Part shown: one piece after another, positions 3,322 to 36,323 of the stretch
How the letters are laid out: every line of letters starts with the position of its first letter
Numbering within the stretch: the stretch's first letter is position 1
Origin: a virus
Direction: 5' to 3' (one strand)
IMG/VR virus record: IMGVR_UViG_3300035158_000183
Span: 1 to 64,000 of that record
DNA: 64,000 nt
The notes under the pieces: model-generated
What the model was told of the DNA's origin: nothing
Database searches by the model: none
The model's input: only the letters and a program-made list of their open reading frames with translations
Made by a program: the position numbers and the translations under genes

Positions 3322-4452
3322 ATGGGAAAAATATTTCCGACACTTTATAAGCAGGCTAAGAAGGGTGAGATTCGCGAATGGCGAATACAAACCAATGGCG
3401 GTGACATCATGACCACTCATGGTATGCATGGTGGAGCTATGCAGTTGGCTGTCAAGGAAGCCAAAGCCAAGAATGTAGGTAGGGCTAATGAAACTACAGC
3501 TGAACAGCAGGCTAAGCTTGAAGCCGAGTCCATGTGGAAGAAGAAGAAGGATAAGGGCTACTTCGAGTCTGTCAAGGAGGCTGAGGAAGAGGTGGTCTTC
3601 CTCCCCATGCTGGCTCACGAGCTGAAGCCTAAGGTACTGGAAAAGCTGGAGTTTCCCGTAGATGTACAGCCTAAGCTGGATGGCGTTAGATGCCTAGCCC
3701 ACTGGAAGGGTGACAGTGTCCATCTTATGTCCAGGGGCGGCAAGACATATGATGTCGCTCACATCTCCAAGGCCCTAGAGAGTATCCTTCAACCCAACTG
3801 GGTATTGGACGGCGAGATATACCTCTACGGCCTGCCTCTCCAAGACATCAACAAGTTGGTCAAGAAGCACAGGGACAAGCCCATCAAGGACATTGGCTAT
3901 TGTAGTACGGACCTAGAGTATTGGGTGTACGATACATTCTGCACCGAGGGCGACTACCTGCAGACCAGACACTGGTCAGCCAGGCTCCGGACCCTGAAGA
4001 TGGGCACCTCCATCCCAAGCAGCGGCTCCATCAAGCGCATACCTACCCACCAGGTTGAGAGCAGGCAAGAGTTGATGGCCGCGCACCAAACCTTTAATAC
4101 TGAAGGCTATGAGGGTACCATCATCAGGCTACACAATGGTCTCTATGAACTTGGACATCGTTCCAGAAGTCTGCTAAAGTATAAGGACTTTCAGGATGAC
4201 GAGTTCGAGATAGTAGGATTTGACGAGGGCGTTGGCAAGTTTGTAGGCTGTGTAGTATGGGTGTGCCGGACCAAGAGTGGCAGAGAATTCAGAGTTGTCC
4301 CGAAGGGGACCATGAGGCAGAAGCAGGAGTGGTTCCAGGCTGCCGACAAATACATTAGCCAGATGTTAACCGTAAAGTACCAGACCCTTACCAAGGATGG
4401 GATCCCTGAGTTCCCCGTCGGAATCACTATCCGGATGCCTGAAGACATGTAG
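3322..4452 (+). CDS. ATP-dependent DNA ligase
   Basis: QPKLDGVR (motif I), LDGEIY, YEGTIIR, LLKYKDF, C-terminal OB fold. Confidence 0.92.
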   Translation: MGKIFPTLYKQAKKGEIREWRIQTNGGDIMTTHGMHGGAMQLAVKEAKAKNVGRANETTAEQQAKLEAESMWKKKKDKGYFESVKEAEEEVVFLPMLAHELKPKVLEKLEFPVDVQPKLDGVRCLAHWKGDSVHLMSRGGKTYDVAHISKALESILQPNWVLDGEIYLYGLPLQDINKLVKKHRDKPIKDIGYCSTDLEYWVYDTFCTEGDYLQTRHWSARLRTLKMGTSIPSSGSIKRIPTHQVESRQELMAAHQTFNTEGYEGTIIRLHNGLYELGHRSRSLLKYKDFQDDEFEIVGFDEGVGKFVGCVVWVCRTKSGREFRVVPKGTMRQKQEWFQAADKYISQMLTVKYQTLTKDGIPEFPVGITIRMPEDM

Positions 4453-4453
4453 C

Positions 4454-4527
4454 CGGCTCGTAGCCCAGTGGTCTAGGGCGCAGCCCTGATAAGGCTGAGG
4501 TCGGTGGTTCAAATCCACCCGGGCCGA
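4454..4527 (+). tRNA. tRNA-Ile(GAT)
   Basis: Acceptor CGGCTCG/CGGGCCG; anticodon arm CAGCC-CTGATAA-GGCTG; T arm GGTGG-TTCAAAT-CCACC; no encoded CCA. Confidence 0.92.
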
Positions 4528-4560
4528 CTGAACAGGCCTAGCATCACTACCTTAGAGGAA

Positions 4561-4633
4561 GGCGGGATGATGCAGTGGTCAGCAATCAGGTCTCATAAGC
4601 CTGAAGTCGCCAGTTCGAATCTGGCTCCCGCTA
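4561..4633 (+). tRNA. tRNA with CAT anticodon (elongator Met or Ile2)
   Basis: Acceptor GGCGGGA/TCCCGCT; CAGGT-CTCATAA-GCCTG; GCCAG-TTCGAAT-CTGGC; lacks the three G-C anticodon-stem pairs of initiator tRNA. Confidence 0.9.
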
Positions 4634-4636
4634 TAG

Positions 4637-4709
4637 GGCCCGTTAGGTTAATGGTAGACCCTCAGGTTTTCGCCCTGAAAGCGGTTGGGTTCAATTCCCC
4701 CACGGGCCA
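4637..4709 (+). tRNA. tRNA-Glu(TTC)
   Basis: Acceptor GGCCCGT/ACGGGCC; TCAGG-TTTTCGC-CCTGA; imperfect T stem around TTCAATT. Confidence 0.78.
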
Positions 4710-4772
4710 AGGAGGACACAATGGGAAAAGGTTAAGGGCTCAAGTCCTTCTGCCTCTGCCAGGCAGGGAATA

Positions 4773-4844
4773 GGGGTATTGGTGTAGCGGCTAACATCTC
4801 GGACTGTCGATTCGAAGCCAGGGGTTCGATTCCCCTATACCCCG
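4773..4844 (+). tRNA. tRNA-Asp(GTC)
   Basis: Acceptor GGGGTAT/ATACCCC; TCGGA-CTGTCGA-TTCGA; AGGGG-TTCGATT-CCCCT. Confidence 0.9.
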
Positions 4845-4946
4845 TGCCAAGGAGGAGAAGATATGCCTACAGACCCAACATATTTCAACCATATTGTACA
4901 CTTCCGTGATGACGAAGGTGTTCTCTTGGGGGTAAGATGATCCATA

Positions 4947-5456
4947 ATGCAAAGAAAGACACTCTTTAAGAACGATTGGGTTTCCACTGTACTACTAAAT
5001 GGATGGTACATCGCCACAGAGGAAAGCCGATGCCCTGGCAACAACCTGGTTGCAGTACTCCCCTGGAGACTCAAAAGTGGTGAGAGGCAATACCTCGCCC
5101 GCTTTGAAGAAAACCTTGCCCACGGCGGCGAAGACAACTATCCCACCTCCATAATTACAGGTGGCTGTGAGACCAAAGACATCCTCCACCATGCACAAGA
5201 CGAACTCCTTGAGGAGGGTGGTTATAACATCGAAAGACACCGATTTATACCTCTAGGCACCTGCCACCCACTCAAAAGTTCATTTGCTGTAATGAATCTG
5301 TTTACTGTACGTATTATTAATACTGATAAGAGAGTTAGGGCAGAAGGAGATGGCACCCTGGGAGAGAAGGGTGCCTGGTGTAGCTGGGTCGGGCATGGTA
5401 CTCTTATCTGGGCTAAAGACCCGTACATACACACCATTCTAGTCAGGATGAAGTAG
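4947..5456 (+). CDS. Nudix hydrolase-like protein
   Basis: Nudix-box variant GGCETKDILHHAQDELLEEGGY. Confidence 0.7.
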   Translation: MQRKTLFKNDWVSTVLLNGWYIATEESRCPGNNLVAVLPWRLKSGERQYLARFEENLAHGGEDNYPTSIITGGCETKDILHHAQDELLEEGGYNIERHRFIPLGTCHPLKSSFAVMNLFTVRIINTDKRVRAEGDGTLGEKGAWCSWVGHGTLIWAKDPYIHTILVRMK

Positions 5457-5540
5457 GAGGGTTGCGGGAGTGGTAACCGGCGGGATTGCTAATCCCAGGC
5501 CTGGGTAACACCAGCGTAGGTTCGAGTCCTACACCCTCCG
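5456..5540 (+). tRNA. tRNA-Ser(GCT)
   Basis: Acceptor GGAGGGT/ACCCTCC, G73; loop TTGCTAA; long variable arm; GTAGG-TTCGAGT-CCTAC. Confidence 0.9.
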
Positions 5541-5561
5541 CAGGAGATGAGAGGAAGAGGG

Positions 5562-5837
5562 ATGAGTGAATATAAAGAATTGGACAGCTTGGACTTTGCT
5601 GTACAACAGCTACGACAAGCGTTGCACGGCATTATGGCTCTTATGTTCATGCGAAAGTCTCACAGTGAGCTAGTCAACCAATTGGATCAGATGAAATCCA
5701 ATATAGGTTCATGGGGACTACAGCAGGAAAGCAGCGAAGAGATCTTATGCGCCCTGTCACATATTCAAAGAGCAATAGAAATTGAGGACAAAACCGAAGC
5801 GGTCTCAAAGAACAGAAGTATATACCTTGTCGAGTAG
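5562..5837 (+). CDS. Hypothetical protein
   Basis: ORF starting MSEYK at the junction-motif ATG. Confidence 0.6.
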   Translation: MSEYKELDSLDFAVQQLRQALHGIMALMFMRKSHSELVNQLDQMKSNIGSWGLQQESSEEILCALSHIQRAIEIEDKTEAVSKNRSIYLVE

Positions 5838-5881
5838 GAACGTGGGGGATGAGTGAAAGGAATTAAAATGGAGGTGACGCA

Positions 5882-6250
5882 ATGATCGACAAGCACACTT
5901 CGTTAAGACCTAATCAGTTGCAGTTTTTCCCTGTCTGCGATTCACCATCATGGGAGGAGATTGAGTCATTGGGATTCAGCCGCAAGGAAAGGAGCTGGCC
6001 TGTTCCAAGCAGTTTCTGCCACACCAAAAAGAGCGGCGAGTGGGTTATGGCGATCTACAACAAGCAATACCGCAAGCCGAAGAGGGGCGAGTGGTACCTA
6101 TCTGGTGCGATTGTTTCGGCTTATAAGGCTCCGAACGATCTGTCCTCCAAGTACTATATCGCCAAGCTTGTTAGGGTTCGCCACATGGAGAGAGTCGTGC
6201 TGGCTAGGGATGATGCTATGACCTACGAGAAAGGCGGCGGGGATGAGTGA
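5882..6250 (+). CDS. Hypothetical protein
   Basis: GGAGG SD; ends KGGGDE within the junction motif. Confidence 0.7.
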   Translation: MIDKHTSLRPNQLQFFPVCDSPSWEEIESLGFSRKERSWPVPSSFCHTKKSGEWVMAIYNKQYRKPKRGEWYLSGAIVSAYKAPNDLSSKYYIAKLVRVRHMERVVLARDDAMTYEKGGGDE

Positions 6251-6464
6251 AATAGACCGAAATGCAATGAAATTGGCCGCAGGATTGACTCTCATCTCAG
6301 TATTGGGTGCGGGTATCGTGTGTCTGATGGGTTATGGACTGAATGTTGTTTTCGGAATTGTCGGGCCAGTGGCGTTAGCTATTGTGATTGCAGCATTAGC
6401 ACTCTGGTTGGGGTTTTACCAGCAGATCAAAGAAGAACACAAGAAAGGAGGCGGGAATGAGTGA
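6243..6464 (+). CDS. Small membrane protein (2 TM)
   Basis: Two hydrophobic segments; starts MSE, ends KGGGNE. Confidence 0.65.
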   Translation: MSEIDRNAMKLAAGLTLISVLGAGIVCLMGYGLNVVFGIVGPVALAIVIAALALWLGFYQQIKEEHKKGGGNE

Positions 6465-6588
6465 CTCTATCAAAGTATGAGAAACGTCAACAGGTGAAGG
6501 AAATTGTACAGAGCGTCGAGGTCTGTAATAGGACCGAGTACCTAGTGGATAGGATAGACGCGGTTTACGGTGATTAAGGAGGCAAAGA

Positions 6589-7071
6589 ATGAAGACAAGA
6601 AAATTGATACAGGAGCTTTTGGAGACGGATTTGGACGCCGAAGTCGATGTGGTCTTTGATGATAAGTTGGAAGATGGCCAGTGGCTCGAAATCTCTGTAG
6701 TGAAGTCGCACAAGACTTCATTTGGAGAATATACGATTATCGAACTGAAAGCATATTACGGCGACTGTGAGCAAGAGCGAAAAAGTAACATTATGGAATG
6801 CGATCAATGTGGTAGAGAGTGGACAGCAGCAATGGAAGACGGCGCAACTGAACGGTTGAAATGTCCAGATTGTGGCGCAATGGTACAGGCCCCGCCGCAA
6901 AAGACTAGGGACACAAGCGACACTCCTACCAACAGCGCTATGCCAAAACTGCCGGAATTGTCGGAAGTTCTGGCTCAACTTGACGCCGTAGAAAATGACC
7001 CTGTGGCTGATCGGGTTGTTGAGGGTGTCAAGGTGGCCTACGAGTTCATAGCCCGGCAACTGTCAGCATAG
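6589..7071 (+). CDS. Hypothetical protein with Zn-ribbon
   Basis: AAGGAGG SD; CDQC...CPDC. Confidence 0.7.
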   Translation: MKTRKLIQELLETDLDAEVDVVFDDKLEDGQWLEISVVKSHKTSFGEYTIIELKAYYGDCEQERKSNIMECDQCGREWTAAMEDGATERLKCPDCGAMVQAPPQKTRDTSDTPTNSAMPKLPELSEVLAQLDAVENDPVADRVVEGVKVAYEFIARQLSA

Positions 7072-7086
7072 CGCGAACCGTTGTAC
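6927..7086. repeat. attC-like imperfect inverted repeat
   Basis: TACCAAC-AGCGCTATGC-CAAAA-CTGCCGG ... CCGGCA-ACTGTCA-GCATAGCGC-GAACC-GTTGTAC: AAC/GTT ends and nested complementary arms. Confidence 0.5.
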
Positions 7087-7119
7087 AAAATACGCTCCCA
7101 ACGGCGAAAGGCGGCGGGG

Positions 7120-7326
7120 ATGAGCAACACCTGTGAATGGGCCTTCTACAAAGGATTATGGCATACAGAGTGCTCCAACTTTCGGACTACCACCATATGT
7201 GGCAAAGTACACTATACCTTTGACGCTATTCCAGAAGATAGAATCTGCCCCGATTGTGGATGCAGAATAGTTGAATATGAGCGACATTTTGGACGCAAGG
7301 TCAGGAAAGGAGGAGGGGATGGGTGA
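7120..7326 (+). CDS. Small Cys-rich/Zn-ribbon protein
   Basis: MSNTCEW...WHTEC...CPDCG; ends KGGGDG. Confidence 0.65.
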   Translation: MSNTCEWAFYKGLWHTECSNFRTTTICGKVHYTFDAIPEDRICPDCGCRIVEYERHFGRKVRKGGGDG

Positions 7327-7351
7327 AAAATACAAACCAAAGGAGAGGAAA

Positions 7352-7636
7352 ATGATGAAGGTTAAGAAGCAAGAGGTAATCGAAGTTGAAACCGAGGGGC
7401 TGGCCTCTTTACTGGGACAACGAGTGCTGCTCATGTGTGCAAACTATTTTTACGAGGGGGTACTGGAGGGCATCAATGACACGTGCTGCCTACTGTCCGA
7501 TCCCGGCATTGTTTATGAGACGGGTAAATGGTCGGATGCCACGTGGGCAGATCGGCAGCAATTGCCAGGTGAACATTACGTGACACTCCAGTCGATAGAG
7601 TCATTCTGTGTCTCGCCTCCAGTGGTCCTGTCATGA
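7352..7636 (+). CDS. Sm/LSm-fold-like protein
   Basis: LLGQRVLLMCANYFYEGVLEGINDTCCLLSDP resembles Sm1; HYVTLQSIESF resembles Sm2; alternative start at 7319. Confidence 0.5.
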   Translation: MMKVKKQEVIEVETEGLASLLGQRVLLMCANYFYEGVLEGINDTCCLLSDPGIVYETGKWSDATWADRQQLPGEHYVTLQSIESFCVSPPVVLS

Positions 7637-7878
7637 TACGTGCTCGCAACAATAAGCGGTCGGGGTCGTTGTCGTGGTCGTTGTCGTGGTCGTTGTCGAG
7701 GTCGGGGTCGTTGTCGCGGTCGGGGTCGAGGTCGTTGTCGTTGTCGTTGTCGAGGTCGGGGTCGTTGTCGTGGTCGAGGTCAGGGTCGGGGTCGTTGTCG
7801 TGGTCGTTGTCGTGGTCGTTGTCGAGGTCGTGGTCGAGGTCGTTGTCGAGGTCGTGGTCAGGGAAGGGGGAGGGATGA
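7633..7878 (+). CDS. Low-complexity Ser-X (SR/SW/SL/SG) repeat protein
   Basis: ATGA-coupled to the upstream gene; every second residue is Ser. Confidence 0.55.
   Translation: MIRARNNKRSGSLSWSLSWSLSRSGSLSRSGSRSLSLSLSRSGSLSWSRSGSGSLSWSLSWSLSRSWSRSLSRSWSGKGEG
7660..7863 (+). repeat. Hexamer tandem repeat, 34 units of TC(G/A)+NGG or TTG
   Basis: tcgggg tcgttg tcgtgg tcgagg ... over 204 nt. Confidence 0.95.
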
Positions 7879-7905
7879 GTGATATCAATCCAAGACATAG
7901 AGGTA

Positions 7906-7978
7906 GCACCTGTAGCTCAGCTGGCAGAGCGTGACGTTGCCAACGTCGAGGCCACGGGTTCGAACCCCGTCAGGTGCT
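7906..7978 (+). tRNA. tRNA-Gly(GCC)
   Basis: GCACCTG/CAGGTGC, T73; TGACG-TTGCCAA-CGTCG; ACGGG-TTCGAAC-CCCGT. Confidence 0.93.
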
Positions 7979-7990
7979 CTGAGGAGACAG

Positions 7991-9388
7991 ATGCCAGATA
8001 TAGAGAAAAATCTGACCGAGTTGGGCAAGAAGGTACCACACCAGCTCAAGGATATAGCCGACCACCTACACAATGAGGGCGGCGAGGCCTATCTTGTAGG
8101 CGGCGCTGTAGTAGACCATCTCCTTGGGCACGAGATCAAGGACTGGGACATAGAGGTATTCGGCCTTAGCTATGAAAACCTGCTAGATATTTTGTCCCAA
8201 TACGGCCACACAGACCTGATTGGTAGTAAGTTCGGTGTGGTTAAACTGGTCGCTGACCTGCTAGACATGGAGTTCACAGTACCCAGGCTAGAGAACAGCA
8301 CTGGCCCTAAGCATCAGGACTTCGATATTCAGCTCATCCCCAGCATATCTGTGGAGCAGGCTGGGCATCGCCGAGACTTCACCATCAACTCCATCTACTA
8401 TGATATCAAGCACGACCTGGTAGTAGATCCCTTTGCGGGAATAGCGGCACTGAAAGCCGGTCTGATCTGTCATATAGATGATGAGACCTTCCCGCAGGAT
8501 CCCTTGAGGGCCTACAGGGCTATACAGTTGTGTGCCCGGAAGGGCAAGACTATCTGTCCTCATACACAGGGCCTGATACGGAGTATGCTGGAAGAGTGCG
8601 CGGCGATTCCGGGAGAAGCTATCTATGGTGAGCTTACCAAATGCTTGATGAAAGCCGAGAAACCCTCGGTCGGATTACAGTTCCTTAAAGGTACACAATT
8701 GATCTACAACCACCCTGAGCTAGCTATTCTGATAGGTGCCAGGCATAGGCCTGACTACCATCCTGAGGGAGATGTCTGGAACCACACCTTGATGGTAATA
8801 GACGAGGCAGCCAGATACCGGGACGAGCTGCCGGAGGAATGGAGGTTAGGGTTCATGTGGGGGATGCTCCTACATGATGTAGGGAAGCCTGCTACATACG
8901 ACCCGGAAACTGGCAGCACTCTGCAGCATGACAAGAAGGGTGAGGCTCCAGCCAGAGCTTGCCTCGGCCAGCTTACACAAGATAAGGATCTTACTGATAA
9001 AGCAGTCTCTATTGTCAGGAGTCACATGCGAGCCCGCTTACTCCTGAAAGCATCACCCCGTAAGGCCGCCTGGAGGCGGCTCCAGAACATCTGTCCTCTG
9101 AATATATTGGCCTATGTGTCCATGTGTGATGAAGATGGCAGGGGTGACCCAAACCAGAGGCTTGGCAAGGATGACCCGGTCTTTAAGAGGTGTACGGAGA
9201 TATATAAGGAGCTTGGCGCCCCAGAGCGGGAGATAAAACCCATCCTTATGGGCCGTCACCTCATAGCTGTCGGACACAAGCCCGGAGTACAGTTTGGGGT
9301 TATGTTAAAGAAAGCTTATGAGTACCAACTTGACGAGGGCTGTGAAGATGTAGATACTCTACTAGAGGTAGCCACTAAGCCGGTGTAG
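7991..9388 (+). CDS. cca: CCA-adding tRNA nucleotidyltransferase with HD domain
   Basis: YLVGGAVVD..KDWDIE, RRDFTINS, DPLRAYR, HPEGDVWNHT..LLHDVGK; start placed after tRNA-Gly (GAGGAG SD). Confidence 0.92.
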   Translation: MPDIEKNLTELGKKVPHQLKDIADHLHNEGGEAYLVGGAVVDHLLGHEIKDWDIEVFGLSYENLLDILSQYGHTDLIGSKFGVVKLVADLLDMEFTVPRLENSTGPKHQDFDIQLIPSISVEQAGHRRDFTINSIYYDIKHDLVVDPFAGIAALKAGLICHIDDETFPQDPLRAYRAIQLCARKGKTICPHTQGLIRSMLEECAAIPGEAIYGELTKCLMKAEKPSVGLQFLKGTQLIYNHPELAILIGARHRPDYHPEGDVWNHTLMVIDEAARYRDELPEEWRLGFMWGMLLHDVGKPATYDPETGSTLQHDKKGEAPARACLGQLTQDKDLTDKAVSIVRSHMRARLLLKASPRKAAWRRLQNICPLNILAYVSMCDEDGRGDPNQRLGKDDPVFKRCTEIYKELGAPEREIKPILMGRHLIAVGHKPGVQFGVMLKKAYEYQLDEGCEDVDTLLEVATKPV

Positions 9389-9451
9389 CTCAATTGGCAG
9401 AGCACCTGATTTGTACCCAGGGGGTTGCAGGTTCAATTCCTGTCGCCGGCC
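9379..9451 (+). tRNA. tRNA-Thr(TGT)
   Basis: GCCGGTG/CGCCGGC; loop TTTGTAC; GCAGG-TTCAATT-CCTGT; overlaps the last 10 nt of cca. Confidence 0.88.
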
Positions 9452-12583: not shown

Positions 12584-12907
12584 ATGGAGCCTAACATGAG
12601 CTGTCGCAAGATTAAAGACCCTACTAAAGTGAAGAAGACCAAGCTGCCGGAGATCGGGATGAAGGAGGCCCTGTACTCCCATCTGTTTACCACCAGGCAG
12701 CAGAGGGAACACGAGGAGGAAGAGGCTGTCGCCAAGCTTATCCAGGATGGACAGCTGGACCTCCTGAAGGTCAAGGATTACGACTACATGAGTAAGATAG
12801 CCAAGGGCTTGGACTGGAGTATAGGCCGGCTCTTGAAGACAGTAAACAGGATGACAATCATCCTGCCAGAACAGCACACAGAAGGAGAGGAAGATGCAAA
12901 AGGTTAG
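12584..12907 (+). CDS. Hypothetical protein
   Basis: ORF in gene run. Confidence 0.55.
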   Translation: MEPNMSCRKIKDPTKVKKTKLPEIGMKEALYSHLFTTRQQREHEEEEAVAKLIQDGQLDLLKVKDYDYMSKIAKGLDWSIGRLLKTVNRMTIILPEQHTEGEEDAKG

Positions 12908-13265
12908 AGACATGTTCGGCAATTACATTGCCAAGGGTAACTACATTAGCTACCCATGCCGTAAGGGTAGCTCCACTTACATGCGGACAGCCAAGGTCAT
13001 TAACATCAGGGAGAGGAACCTAGATGGTGACAACCCTGAGACAGTCCTGGATGTAGCAGTAGCCATAGCTCCCAGGGACCATGAGCGGAAAGCCAACCCC
13101 AACTGGAAGACCAGGATCCGCAGGACTTGTGTAAGCCGTCACTACAGATCTTCCATTGTGCCTCAGTCCTACATCCAGCACGACAGACGATACAGCTGCC
13201 TGCTGGACTACGAGCCCCCACAGAGGAAGAAGAGCAAGAACGAAAAGCGTTCAGGCAAGTCCTAA
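12894..13265 (+). CDS. Hypothetical protein
   Basis: GGAGAGG SD; overlaps the upstream stop. Confidence 0.65.
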   Translation: MQKVRDMFGNYIAKGNYISYPCRKGSSTYMRTAKVINIRERNLDGDNPETVLDVAVAIAPRDHERKANPNWKTRIRRTCVSRHYRSSIVPQSYIQHDRRYSCLLDYEPPQRKKSKNEKRSGKS

Positions 13266-13403
13266 CATGAAAATATTAGAACCGTGTGCACTCACAATAG
13301 TTTTCCATGCTCCCGAAGGCTATAGCTCTATAGAGCATTGGCTGGAGAGGGTCAACGAGCGCATACCCTCCATGTATGAAGACCTAGCCGAGGAGTTCCT
13401 AAC

Positions 13404-13493
13404 ATGATATACCTAATGGCTGGTATTGTGCTGGCAATGTGTGTATTCCTGGTCTATAAGGCCGTCACCACTAAGCCTAAGCGCAAGAAGTAG
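13404..13493 (+). CDS. Small single-TM peptide (29 aa)
   Basis: MIYLMAGIVLAMCVFLVYKAVTTKPKRKK; AGGAG SD; its TAG ends on tRNA G1. Confidence 0.45.
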   Translation: MIYLMAGIVLAMCVFLVYKAVTTKPKRKK

Positions 13494-34229: not shown

Positions 34230-36323
34230 ATGAGTCCGAAAATGTCGGAGGCTCTCGGGATAGTTATCTCGACAATTGAAAAACAATTCGGCAAAGGTAC
34301 AGTCCAGCGGCTTACCGATAAGGCATCCGCTGAGCCAGACAACGTCATCCGTAGCGGTTCCATAGCCCTGGATAGTGCTCTGGGGGTAGGTGGCTACCGC
34401 AAGGGAAGGATCGTAGAGCTGTTCGGCCCTGAAATGAGCGGCAAGACCACGCTAGGCCTCCACGCCGTAGTGTGTTGTCAAAAGGCCGGAGGTGTCGCAG
34501 CGTACATAGACGTAGAGCATGCTCTAGACCCGCTATACGCAACCAGTCTGGGTGTCGACCTGGACAGCCTGCTGGTGTCGCAGCCTGATACTGCAGAGCA
34601 GGCTCTACAGATAGCTGATATCATGGCCAGGTCAGGAGAAGTCAGCCTAATCGTGCTCGACTCGGTGGCAGCCCTGGTACCACAGAAGGAACTCGAGGGT
34701 GAGATGGGAGATCAGCATGTGGGGCTACAAGCCAGGCTGATGAGTCAGGCCATGAGGAAGCTGACCGGCTCTCTCAGCAGCTCCAACTGCACCATCATCT
34801 TCACCAACCAGATCAGGATGAAGATAGGCGTCATGTTTGGGTGCTTCTCCTATCGGACCAAGATACATCTAGCAGATGGCACAACAGAAGATATCGGAAA
34901 GATCGTAAATCAAAGACTTCCGCTAGAAGTTCTCTCATACAATGCAGAGACAAAACAAATAGAACCAAAGAAAATTACTAAATGGTTTGACAATGGCACC
35001 ACAAAAGAATACCTGCAAATCAAATCCCAGAGAGCCGTAGGCAATGGAGTTAACTTCATTGAAGTGACACCAAACCATTTGATCTTTACTCCTGAGGAGG
35101 AAAAATTTGCCAAAGACTTATCTGCTGGCCAACAAGTCTTAACTAAAGGTCAGCTCATTCTAAATGAAGATCAAATGCAGCTAGCTATTGGCTCAATTTT
35201 AGGGGATGGCAGCTTAAGAAGCAATGGTATAAACACACAGCTTAGGATAGGGCACGGTCCTAATCAAACAGAATACTGCAAACATAAACAATCATTCTTT
35301 GGAAAGAGTGTTGGTTGGTCAGGCGAAAATTCTAAGGGAGGATGGAGCTTTGACCTACATCCCTCATATGATTTAACAGAAATTTTCGAGGAGTCATACT
35401 CTAAGTCTGGACGAACTATATCACCGAAACTTCTCAAGTTGCTTAGCCTACAATCAGTAGCAGTATGGTACATGGATGACGGCACATTCAGTGGCCACTA
35501 TAAAAGATGGGGCAACGGCAAAAGTTCTATTAGTGTAAAAAAATATTCCTGGGAAGATATCGCCAAACTAACTGATAGGCTTGTAGAACTTGGCTTGCCA
35601 GAACCTAGAGTAGATAAACACAAAAGACTAACCTGGCATGGGGAGGCCAGTTATAGGTTTCAAAAGATGCTTGCGCCGAATATCTTTTCCAGCATGAAAT
35701 ACAAGATTCATCCATCTCTAAGAGAGACACCAGAAGAAGAAAGACAAATATTCCAAACACATACAGAGAGCAAGCTTATTTTGGTCCCAACAACGATTAC
35801 TGATATTCAAGCCATAACAAAACATGGAAAGAAGTTTGATATTGAAGTAGAAGGTAATCACAATTACTTTGCTGGGGGGATGCTAGTACACAACTCCCCG
35901 GAGGTAACCAGTGGTGGCAACGCCCTGAAATTCTATGCCAGCCAGAGATTGGACATCAGGCGGATTGGCCAGATTAAGGACAAGGACAAGGTCCTAGGCA
36001 ATCGGACCAGGGTGAAGGTCGTGAAGAACAAGCTGGCCCCGCCGTTCAAAGAAGCAGAGTTCGACATCCGCTTCGGCATCGGTGTCGACCAGGTAGCCGA
36101 GATATTGGATATTGGCGTAGATGACGGAATTATTGAGAAGTCAGGTGCCTGGTATAGTTACAAGGATAACAAGATAGCTCAAGGGAAAGAAAATGCTGCC
36201 CAGTATCTCAGGGATAACCCGGACATCCAGAAGGAGATACACCAGCAGCTAATGGAACTGAGAGGTCTAGAATGTGCGACAAAGACAAGTGGGGACCAGG
36301 AATCGAGCGAATCAGAGAGCTAA
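34230..36323 (+). CDS. recA: RecA recombinase with intein
   Basis: [46 protein letters not shown]. Confidence 0.96.
34842..35894 (+). mobile_element. Intein in RecA with LAGLIDADG endonuclease (351 aa)
   Basis: GVMFG|CFSY...VTPNH...IGSILGDG...WYMDDG...MLVHN|SPE. Confidence 0.93.

Follow-up and report, generated by a model that had tools for sequence, protein, structure and literature searches.

The locus between tRNA-Ser(GCT) and tRNA-Gly(GCC)

IMGVR_UViG_3300035158_000183 is a linear IMG/VR virus record of 174,034 bp, estimated to be 91% complete, whose first 64 kb constitute the stretch of DNA analysed here (the window). The source virus is a large T4-like phage. Between a tRNA-Ser(GCT) and a tRNA-Gly(GCC) gene, an interval referred to below as the slot, the window harbours an array of six to eight small accessory genes joined by copies of a junction of about 22 nt, in which an extended Shine-Dalgarno (SD) sequence of the GAAAGGAGG type, with C often replacing A, is followed by a 5-nt G-rich spacer, an ATG and, 5 nt later, a TGA. 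This TGA is able to end the gene upstream, and reading of the junction in the upstream frame yields a ...KGGGDE tail. Seven copies lie within 2.3 kb (5551-7882), all in one orientation (+); an earlier note on this DNA had listed seven copies between these tRNAs, with those at 5551 and 5837 degenerate, and both coordinates and repeat searches agree with it. Junction copies and genes, the latter numbered g1 to g7, are arranged as follows (ORF, open reading frame).

5551-5572, + strand: junction copy 1, degenerate, directly after tRNA-Ser; its ATG at 5562 starts g1 and its TGA has no upstream gene to end
5562-5837, + strand: g1, 91 amino acids (aa), an ORF that scores best for codon usage in this frame and has no match to a Pfam or PHROG family; its TAG lies just before copy 2
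5837-5866, + strand: junction copy 2, degenerate (core match), after the g1 TAG, with the 5-codon stub MSERN-stop (5849-5866)
5882-6250, + strand: g2, 122 aa, with its own SD; a member of a widespread small phage protein family, ending KGGGDE
6229-6250, + strand: junction copy 3, the consensus (0 mismatches); the g2 TGA (6248-6250) overlaps the g3 ATG (6243) by 8 nt
6243-6464, + strand: g3, 73 aa, predicted membrane protein, ending KGGGNE (ORF, codon score)
6443-6480, + strand: junction copy 4 (1 mismatch), which ends g3, with the 7-codon stub MSDSIKV-stop (6457-6480)
6461-6577, + strand: g3b, 38 codons, GTG start inside copy 4; codon score 0.36, the highest of the array, in this frame only
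6589-7071, + strand: g4, 160 aa, a zinc-ribbon protein preceded by an SD of its own (weak zinc-ribbon Pfam matches, codon score)
7106-7127, + strand: junction copy 5 (2 mismatches), 35 nt beyond the stop of g4; g5 begins at its ATG (7120), and its TGA is lost
7120-7326, + strand: g5, 68 aa, zinc-ribbon-like ORF, ending KGGGDG
7305-7326, + strand: junction copy 6 (1 mismatch); the g5 stop overlaps the ATG at 7319, from which a leader of 11 codons runs in frame into g6
7352-7636, + strand: g6, 94 aa, preceded by an SD of its own; its family of ~90-aa proteins is large, with 353 representatives at E<1e-3
7633-7878, + strand: g7, Ser-X repeat protein with 34 hexamer units (TRF), ATGA-coupled to g6; it stops at the TGA within the ATGA of copy 7
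7861-7882, + strand: junction copy 7, which ends g7; its ATG at 7875 opens only a frame running into tRNA-Gly

The tails of g2, g3 and g5, together with GKGEG at the end of the repeat ORF (7633-7878), read as the earlier note gives them, and both stubs that it describes are present in the sequence. Three of the seven junction ATGs start real genes, the other four being remnants or leaders, and the unit is retained where one of its halves has no coding use (copies 1, 2, 5 and 7). The genes g2, g4 and g6 each have their own SD just downstream of a junction copy; from a GTG at 5853 in copy 2 runs a frame of 10 codons, whose end overlaps the g2 start as ATGA.

The junction is private to the array

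With the 22-mer of copy 3 (6229-6250) as consensus and up to 3 mismatches allowed, four copies were found (6229, 6443, 7106 and 7305) against 0.03 expected from shuffles, while the 11-nt core around ATG-AGTGA matched six times in the window, always within 5559-7882, against 0.30 expected. Across the whole record six of the seven matches to this core fall inside the array, and a search allowing as many as 6 substitutions retrieved array copies exclusively, so that the absence of the full motif elsewhere, claimed earlier for the window, extends to all 174,034 bp. An independent repeat search grouped the four inner copies into one 26-nt family and paired the two outermost ones at 89% (family D4).

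The motif could have been the ribosome-binding site that this phage uses throughout its genome, a possibility raised by the earlier note. It is private to the 2.3-kb slot and is not the general ribosome-binding site of the phage: start contexts across the genome display a weak SD signal with little information, and the five other 8-nt gene overlaps in the genome are unlike the motif. Folding of 81 nt around each of the seven copies revealed no stable RNA structure (z-scores from -0.6 to +2.0), a repeat search found no inverted repeat or hairpin at the junction copies, and an Rfam scan returned tRNAs only, with no match at the motif. On the + strand between 4180 and 9330 no promoter-like site was found, nor any terminator-like site at the junction copies, leaving the array with neither promoters nor terminators. 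Tyrosine and serine recombinases (PF00589, PF00239) are absent from the whole 91%-complete record, with control genomes positive, and a UvsX/RecA-like recombinase is present, in agreement with the earlier proposal of a system devoid of a dedicated integrase.

A second junction word, CCTAACATGA (stop, 3 nt, ATG), occurs at 12590-12599, 13261-13270 and 13398-13407, directly at the starts of three small genes in the neighbouring inter-tRNA block. The 174-kb genome has no further copy of it, and about 0.3 copies would be expected. As the copies of this second word are likewise confined to one place (12590-13407), junction words are slot-specific, which fits local propagation better than a global optimum for translation.

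Array genes

Codon usage backs g1, g2, g3, g3b, g4 and g6 in the frames given above, and none of these six received a Pfam or PHROG assignment. A search for homologues of g5 found none. The last ~14 residues of g2, which run through copy 3, are missing from all of its 19 homologues (19/19), and the junctions around g2 homologues in other phages have no common motif. The g2 family is characterized by an invariant GEWYLSG and a nearly invariant AYKAPNDL (alignment A1). The AlphaFold2 (AF2) model of g2, with a predicted local distance difference test score (pLDDT) of 80.6, is mostly beta, and a Foldseek search with it returned no PDB fold match; exact look-ups of g2 and of one protein of the metagenome contig L143 gave no match either.

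The N-terminus of the g6 family maps to 7352 and not to the copy 6 ATG at 7319. Comparison of the g6 profile with PDB and Pfam gave only a weak Sm-like match (1m5q, E 0.24), and an Sm-like identity of g6 is unproven at this level of similarity; a single-sequence model (pLDDT 41) was of unusable quality. On contig L233, the homologue closest to g6 (68% identity) is followed by an ATGA-coupled Ser-X repeat ORF (L233:6342-6706), in which the serine codons are AGC compared with TCG in g7. The X residues of the repeat are Gly, Leu, Trp, Arg or Met. Since the L233 partner keeps Ser-X with different serine codons, the hexamer repeat is selected as protein, and the comparison with that partner establishes 7633-7878 as its frame. 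An Arg-Gly/Cys frame, in which the variable third positions would be synonymous, had been considered and was overturned by the same partner. Given its recurrence on L233, g6-g7 is a conserved two-gene module, which on that contig lacks the junction motif. The occurrence of both the g2 and the g6-g7 families elsewhere without the motif speaks for its proposed role as a linker.

Three further readings were discarded. One is an Asp-rich ORF on the minus strand (7473-7898), which in spite of its good codon score would run antisense to g6, itself well supported. The others are a paralogous relationship of the array genes to each other, and a foreign base composition of the array, whose GC content and codon usage are ordinary for the genome.

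The slot in syntenic relatives

The slot is bordered by the following features.

4947-5456, + strand: left anchor gene, 169 aa, 41-45% identical to the ORF found immediately before tRNA-Ser(GCT) in the relatives L026, L027 and L028
5456-5541, + strand: tRNA-Ser(GCT), left border of the slot (ARAGORN; Rfam tRNA)
7906-7979, + strand: tRNA-Gly(GCC), right border of the slot (ARAGORN), with no counterpart at that position in the relatives
7991-9388, + strand: CCA-adding tRNA nucleotidyltransferase, right anchor (PF01743 and an HD domain; phrog_2244 at 2.9e-59)

The window codes further for rIIA, an ATP-dependent ligase, the UvsX/RecA-like recombinase, a primase-helicase and 11 tRNA genes in all, the latter on the + strand throughout. 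The UvsX/RecA-like gene (34230-36323) contains an internal LAGLIDADG homing-endonuclease segment (residues ~313-494), whose position inside this gene suggests an intein. Megablast of 4400-9400 against cultured phages gave no match, and thus no near relative. Homologues of the CCA enzyme with 50-58% identity were found on contigs of 96-198 kb with a gene order matching that of the window phage, the common order being metallophosphatase, ligase, a variable region of tRNAs and small genes, CCA enzyme, TK, DUF932 and PARP. Single-protein locus searches added little: the one with the CCA enzyme found nothing, and the one with the ligase found only relatives of 34% identity, with no tRNAs nearby.

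The slot DNA was compared in three of these relatives (L026, L027 and L028), all of which keep the order of upstream gene, tRNA-Ser(GCT), CCA enzyme and tRNA-Thr. Between tRNA-Ser(GCT) and the CCA gene they hold two, three and no genes, respectively, unrelated to those of the window phage, and in none of the three did the slot contain a tRNA-Gly, an array gene or a repeated junction word. Because the same anchors enclose different genes in the relatives, the array can be said to fill a hyperplastic slot. The presence and absence of genes expected earlier among related phages was thereby found, but not the accompanying breakpoints at the motif, which these nearest relatives (50-58% CCA identity) lack.

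As a separate observation, a gene for a release-factor-like protein (PCRF/RF-1) of ~205 residues follows a short distance after the CCA gene (L026:11610-12224) in two of the three syntenic relatives of 100-200 kb that were examined; PARP, TK and DUF932 are also encoded by these two.

The same motif and its breakpoints in other phages

Metagenome contigs were scanned with a 20-nt degenerate pattern in which the spacer and the TGA were fixed, and the exact 22-mer, which extends 2 nt beyond this pattern, was found in at least 5 different flank contexts. An identical 17-22-mer is carried by the window phage, by two IMG/VR phages (G005 and G006), by the contigs L143 and L191 and by others. L191, of 38% GC, has the same junction (KGGGDE-stop/MSE-start) and, one junction further on, a second but partial copy. 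IMG/VR phages of 14-47 kb (G005, G006 and G007, the latter being the 14.6-kb record of L222) hold local clusters of 2-4 motif copies, as does a group of contigs. Motif-bearing phages span 38-66% GC and share no proteins with the window genome; likewise, the array genes have no homologue in those contigs.

Several comparisons within this set place the limits of homology at the motif. G005 and G006 share 484 nt of about 47 kb, and their main shared piece (336 nt, 99% identity) starts exactly where the motif does; G006 carries an additional gene of 36 codons, with a motif copy on either side. L143 has the upstream gene and the motif in common with L130, L154 and L167, and diverges from them straight after the ATG. 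L123 and L125 have the downstream gene in common and differ upstream of the motif, and a GC-rich group behaves alike. Of the 110 internal homology ends in 13 motif-bearing contigs, 22 are no more than 10 nt away from a motif copy, compared with 2.3% for random positions. Breakpoints at the motif, one of the expectations of the earlier note, are thus documented for other phages carrying the 17-22-mer, while for the lineage of the window phage they can only be surmised.

In L143 there are chimeric junctions, with halves taken from two junction families. Besides the motif, one or more other families are in use in L143, L123, L125, G005 and G006; a junction of this other kind measures ~35-40 nt and gives neighbouring genes a shared ...AAQIEEGE C-terminal tail followed by GTGATG (in L143 at 771-801, 1324-1363, 2365-2404 and 4704-4735).

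In IMG/VR, only the clustered copies are clearly non-random. The degenerate motif had 10 matches there, all unrelated single copies, compared with 1 match for a reversed-pattern control, and part of this excess is merely SD plus ATG; G001, a 90%-complete 40-kb phage, has one motif copy only. The word of the window phage and that of the other phages are probably homologous, to judge from the letters that they share, because they have the non-canonical C variant in common and because copy 3 has an extra 6-nt match upstream (by our own estimate, roughly p 0.02 after multiple comparisons).

Interpretation and alternative explanations

We favour, with a probability of about 0.6, the view that this element has two roles, as a portable junction coupling translation and as a linker for recombination in a hyperplastic region. 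Such a junction would join co-transcribed small genes and give each downstream gene a strong initiation site, and a ribosome ending one small gene would sit on the initiation site of the next, which would couple their translation. The same 17-22 nt beside unrelated genes would at the same time offer homology for insertion, deletion and replacement, the exchange being performed by the general recombination of the phage (UvsX/RecA-type) and requiring no integrase. Exchanges ending a few codons past the ATG would leave stubs and a leader, and selection would retain the junction because downstream expression would depend on it. Of the cassette system outlined in the earlier note, the private motif, the variable slot and the lack of an integrase stand, whereas we infer both the coupling, from the arrangement of the signals, and recombination at the motif in the window phage itself.

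A number of observations weigh against this view. The record being a metagenome assembly, its order of cassettes might reflect the consensus of a population. Within the phage's own lineage, in which the closest relative found has about 58% CCA identity, no gain or loss at the motif is documented, and the ordinary GC content and codon usage of the array genes imply that any imports were not recent. Several breakpoints implied by the stubs and the leader lie 15-33 nt past the ATG, outside the motif, and 22 nt is short for an exchange of the UvsX/RecA type. The stub of L130 is an in-frame internal deletion, at a 5-nt microhomology, of a 76-codon gene of L123 and L125, and this deletion might serve by analogy as a model for the origin of the stubs in the window. 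Phage mosaic breakpoints fall at gene borders anyway, via selection. The 20-nt pattern hit 102 metagenome contigs, mostly as single copies and in some cases inside long genes, and the 17-mer is found in 9 IMG/VR contigs, near the number estimated from a uniform model (4^-17 x collection size). Motif identity with other phages could be partly convergent: at 18 of 49 non-redundant sites, some of them in long ORFs, the motif is an SD embedded in a gene end that gives the KGGGDE-type tail, and convergence on this basis probably contributes to its wide occurrence.

The strongest of the alternatives is a purely translational element, spread by local duplication or gene conversion of a strong ribosome-binding and overlap junction, with gene turnover left to illegitimate recombination. 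The extended SD properly spaced to the ATG, the 8-nt stop overlap and the unstructured surroundings, as for open initiation sites, are what such an element would display; the stubs ending past the motif, the KGGGDE-type tails at unrelated gene ends in many contigs, which suggest convergence, and the compositionally native array genes also agree with it. Coupling, however, hardly explains the half-useless copies at both ends of the array and copy 2, or why g2, g4 and g6 have their own SD just past a motif copy. SD pairing is weaker with C in place of A, and yet this variant is the commonest form here and elsewhere; in outside phages breakpoints are about 9-fold enriched at the motif. We therefore regard a purely translational origin as unlikely, if well short of negligible.

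Less probable still is an operator for a trans-acting factor, that is, a site through which a RegA-like repressor or an SAS-like factor would co-regulate the small genes. Conserved positions beyond rRNA pairing (in the spacer and after the ATG), as in the start-associated sequences (SAS) of cluster K mycobacteriophages (PMC3203893), the single orientation and the presence of the same word in unrelated phages of 38-66% GC would suit such a site, but a regulon should extend over the genome instead of being confined to a 2.3-kb slot, the copies that lack a gene after them are left unexplained, and no candidate regulator was identified, the Sm-like match of g6 having an E value of 0.24. Chance or an assembly artefact is very improbable: repeats below the assembler k-mer can join strain variants in a metagenome assembly, but the observed 4 and 6 matches far exceed the shuffle expectations of 0.03 and 0.30, and coherent ORFs with native codon usage run across every junction. 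The weakest proposal, an integron-like site-specific cassette array, draws on the row of promoterless small genes with one repeated site between them, and can practically be set aside given a 22-nt repeat within coding sequence, the lack of any hairpin or inverted repeat, and a 91%-complete genome devoid of tyrosine and serine recombinases.

Comparison with known systems

The closest functional parallel is found in the promoter-early stem-loops (PeSLs) of T4-type phages. These short cassettes recur between non-essential small ORFs of hyperplastic regions and extend from the stop codon of one gene to the SD and start of the following one, and recombination between their copies inserts, deletes and replaces ORFans with no dedicated recombinase; they constitute transcriptional units between genes, with a sigma-70 promoter and a stem-loop terminator (Arbiol et al. 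2010, PMC2839356; Comeau et al. 2014, PMC4122927). The junction resembles them in lying between small ORFans of a hyperplastic T4-like region and in reaching from the upstream stop to the downstream start. In contrast to PeSLs, it has neither a sigma-70-type early promoter nor a stem-loop terminator or attenuator, measures only 22 nt, overlaps both reading frames, would act at the level of translation, and is present in unrelated phages that are not T4-like. Insertions and deletions ending in the repeat, a feature of PeSLs, were seen here only in the other motif-bearing phages.

In appearance, the junction is nearer to the SAS/ESAS of cluster K mycobacteriophages, an asymmetric 13-bp repeat with an SD core upstream of the starts of unrelated non-structural genes (Pope et al. 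2011, PMC3203893). SAS have one orientation, sometimes include the upstream stop and contain some conserved positions unable to pair with 16S rRNA; the copies, with site numbers of up to 19 per genome in the figures, are spread over the right genome half and end 3-7 bp before the ATG, and they have not been reported as recombination joints (PMC3203893). Both are asymmetric repeats with an SD core, in one orientation, before unrelated gene starts. The junction word differs from the 13-bp consensus, includes the ATG and the overlapping TGA, and occurs in 7 copies within 2.3 kb rather than dispersed.

The linkers of lambdoid phages in the Susskind-Botstein modular model (as cited in PMC3029335) are short sequences at module borders, conserved between otherwise unrelated genomes and proposed to guide homologous exchange; they are rare, lie between functional modules and are given no translational role. 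The junction is likewise conserved between otherwise unrelated phages at gene borders, and in other motif-bearing phages homology ends are enriched at it (22/110 ends against 2.3% expected). In cluster I mycobacteriophages, an insertion of the small gene 68 of Island3 is flanked by two copies of a ~50-bp repeat that encodes C-terminal residues common to neighbouring genes, the gene being present in some cases and absent in others (PMC3029335). Those shared C-terminal residues parallel the KGGGDE tails; the Island3 case differs from ours in being a single event at a longer repeat and not a recurring junction word.

The array is not an integron, with which it has in common a row of promoterless small genes and a repeated site between them. 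The attC sites of integrons are folded inverted repeats of 57-141 bp cut by IntI, whereas the junction has no attC-type folding inverted repeat and the IntI tyrosine recombinase is absent. The junction would work like PeSLs, looks like SAS and fits the linker idea of the modular model.

Implications for gene exchange in phages

The conserved linkers proposed by the modular model have seldom been found at mosaic borders (PMC3029335). Here, an explicit linker can be pointed to, which is a translation signal and which is also present in unrelated phages with breakpoints on it. In a broader and rather speculative version, the 17-22-nt junction would be a common adaptor across unrelated lineages (the 174-kb T4-like phage, ~47-kb phages of 57-60% GC and the 38% GC contig), forming an integrase-free commons of gene cassettes in which a gene could be plugged by homologous recombination into any array holding a copy and be expressed at once through coupling; a factor recognising or cutting the word might maintain such an adaptor. 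If the dual role of the junction is true, ORFan genes without promoters could be taken up and expressed without delay, and the same process may contribute to the short, low-coverage contigs that hold the motif arrays found outside the window phage.

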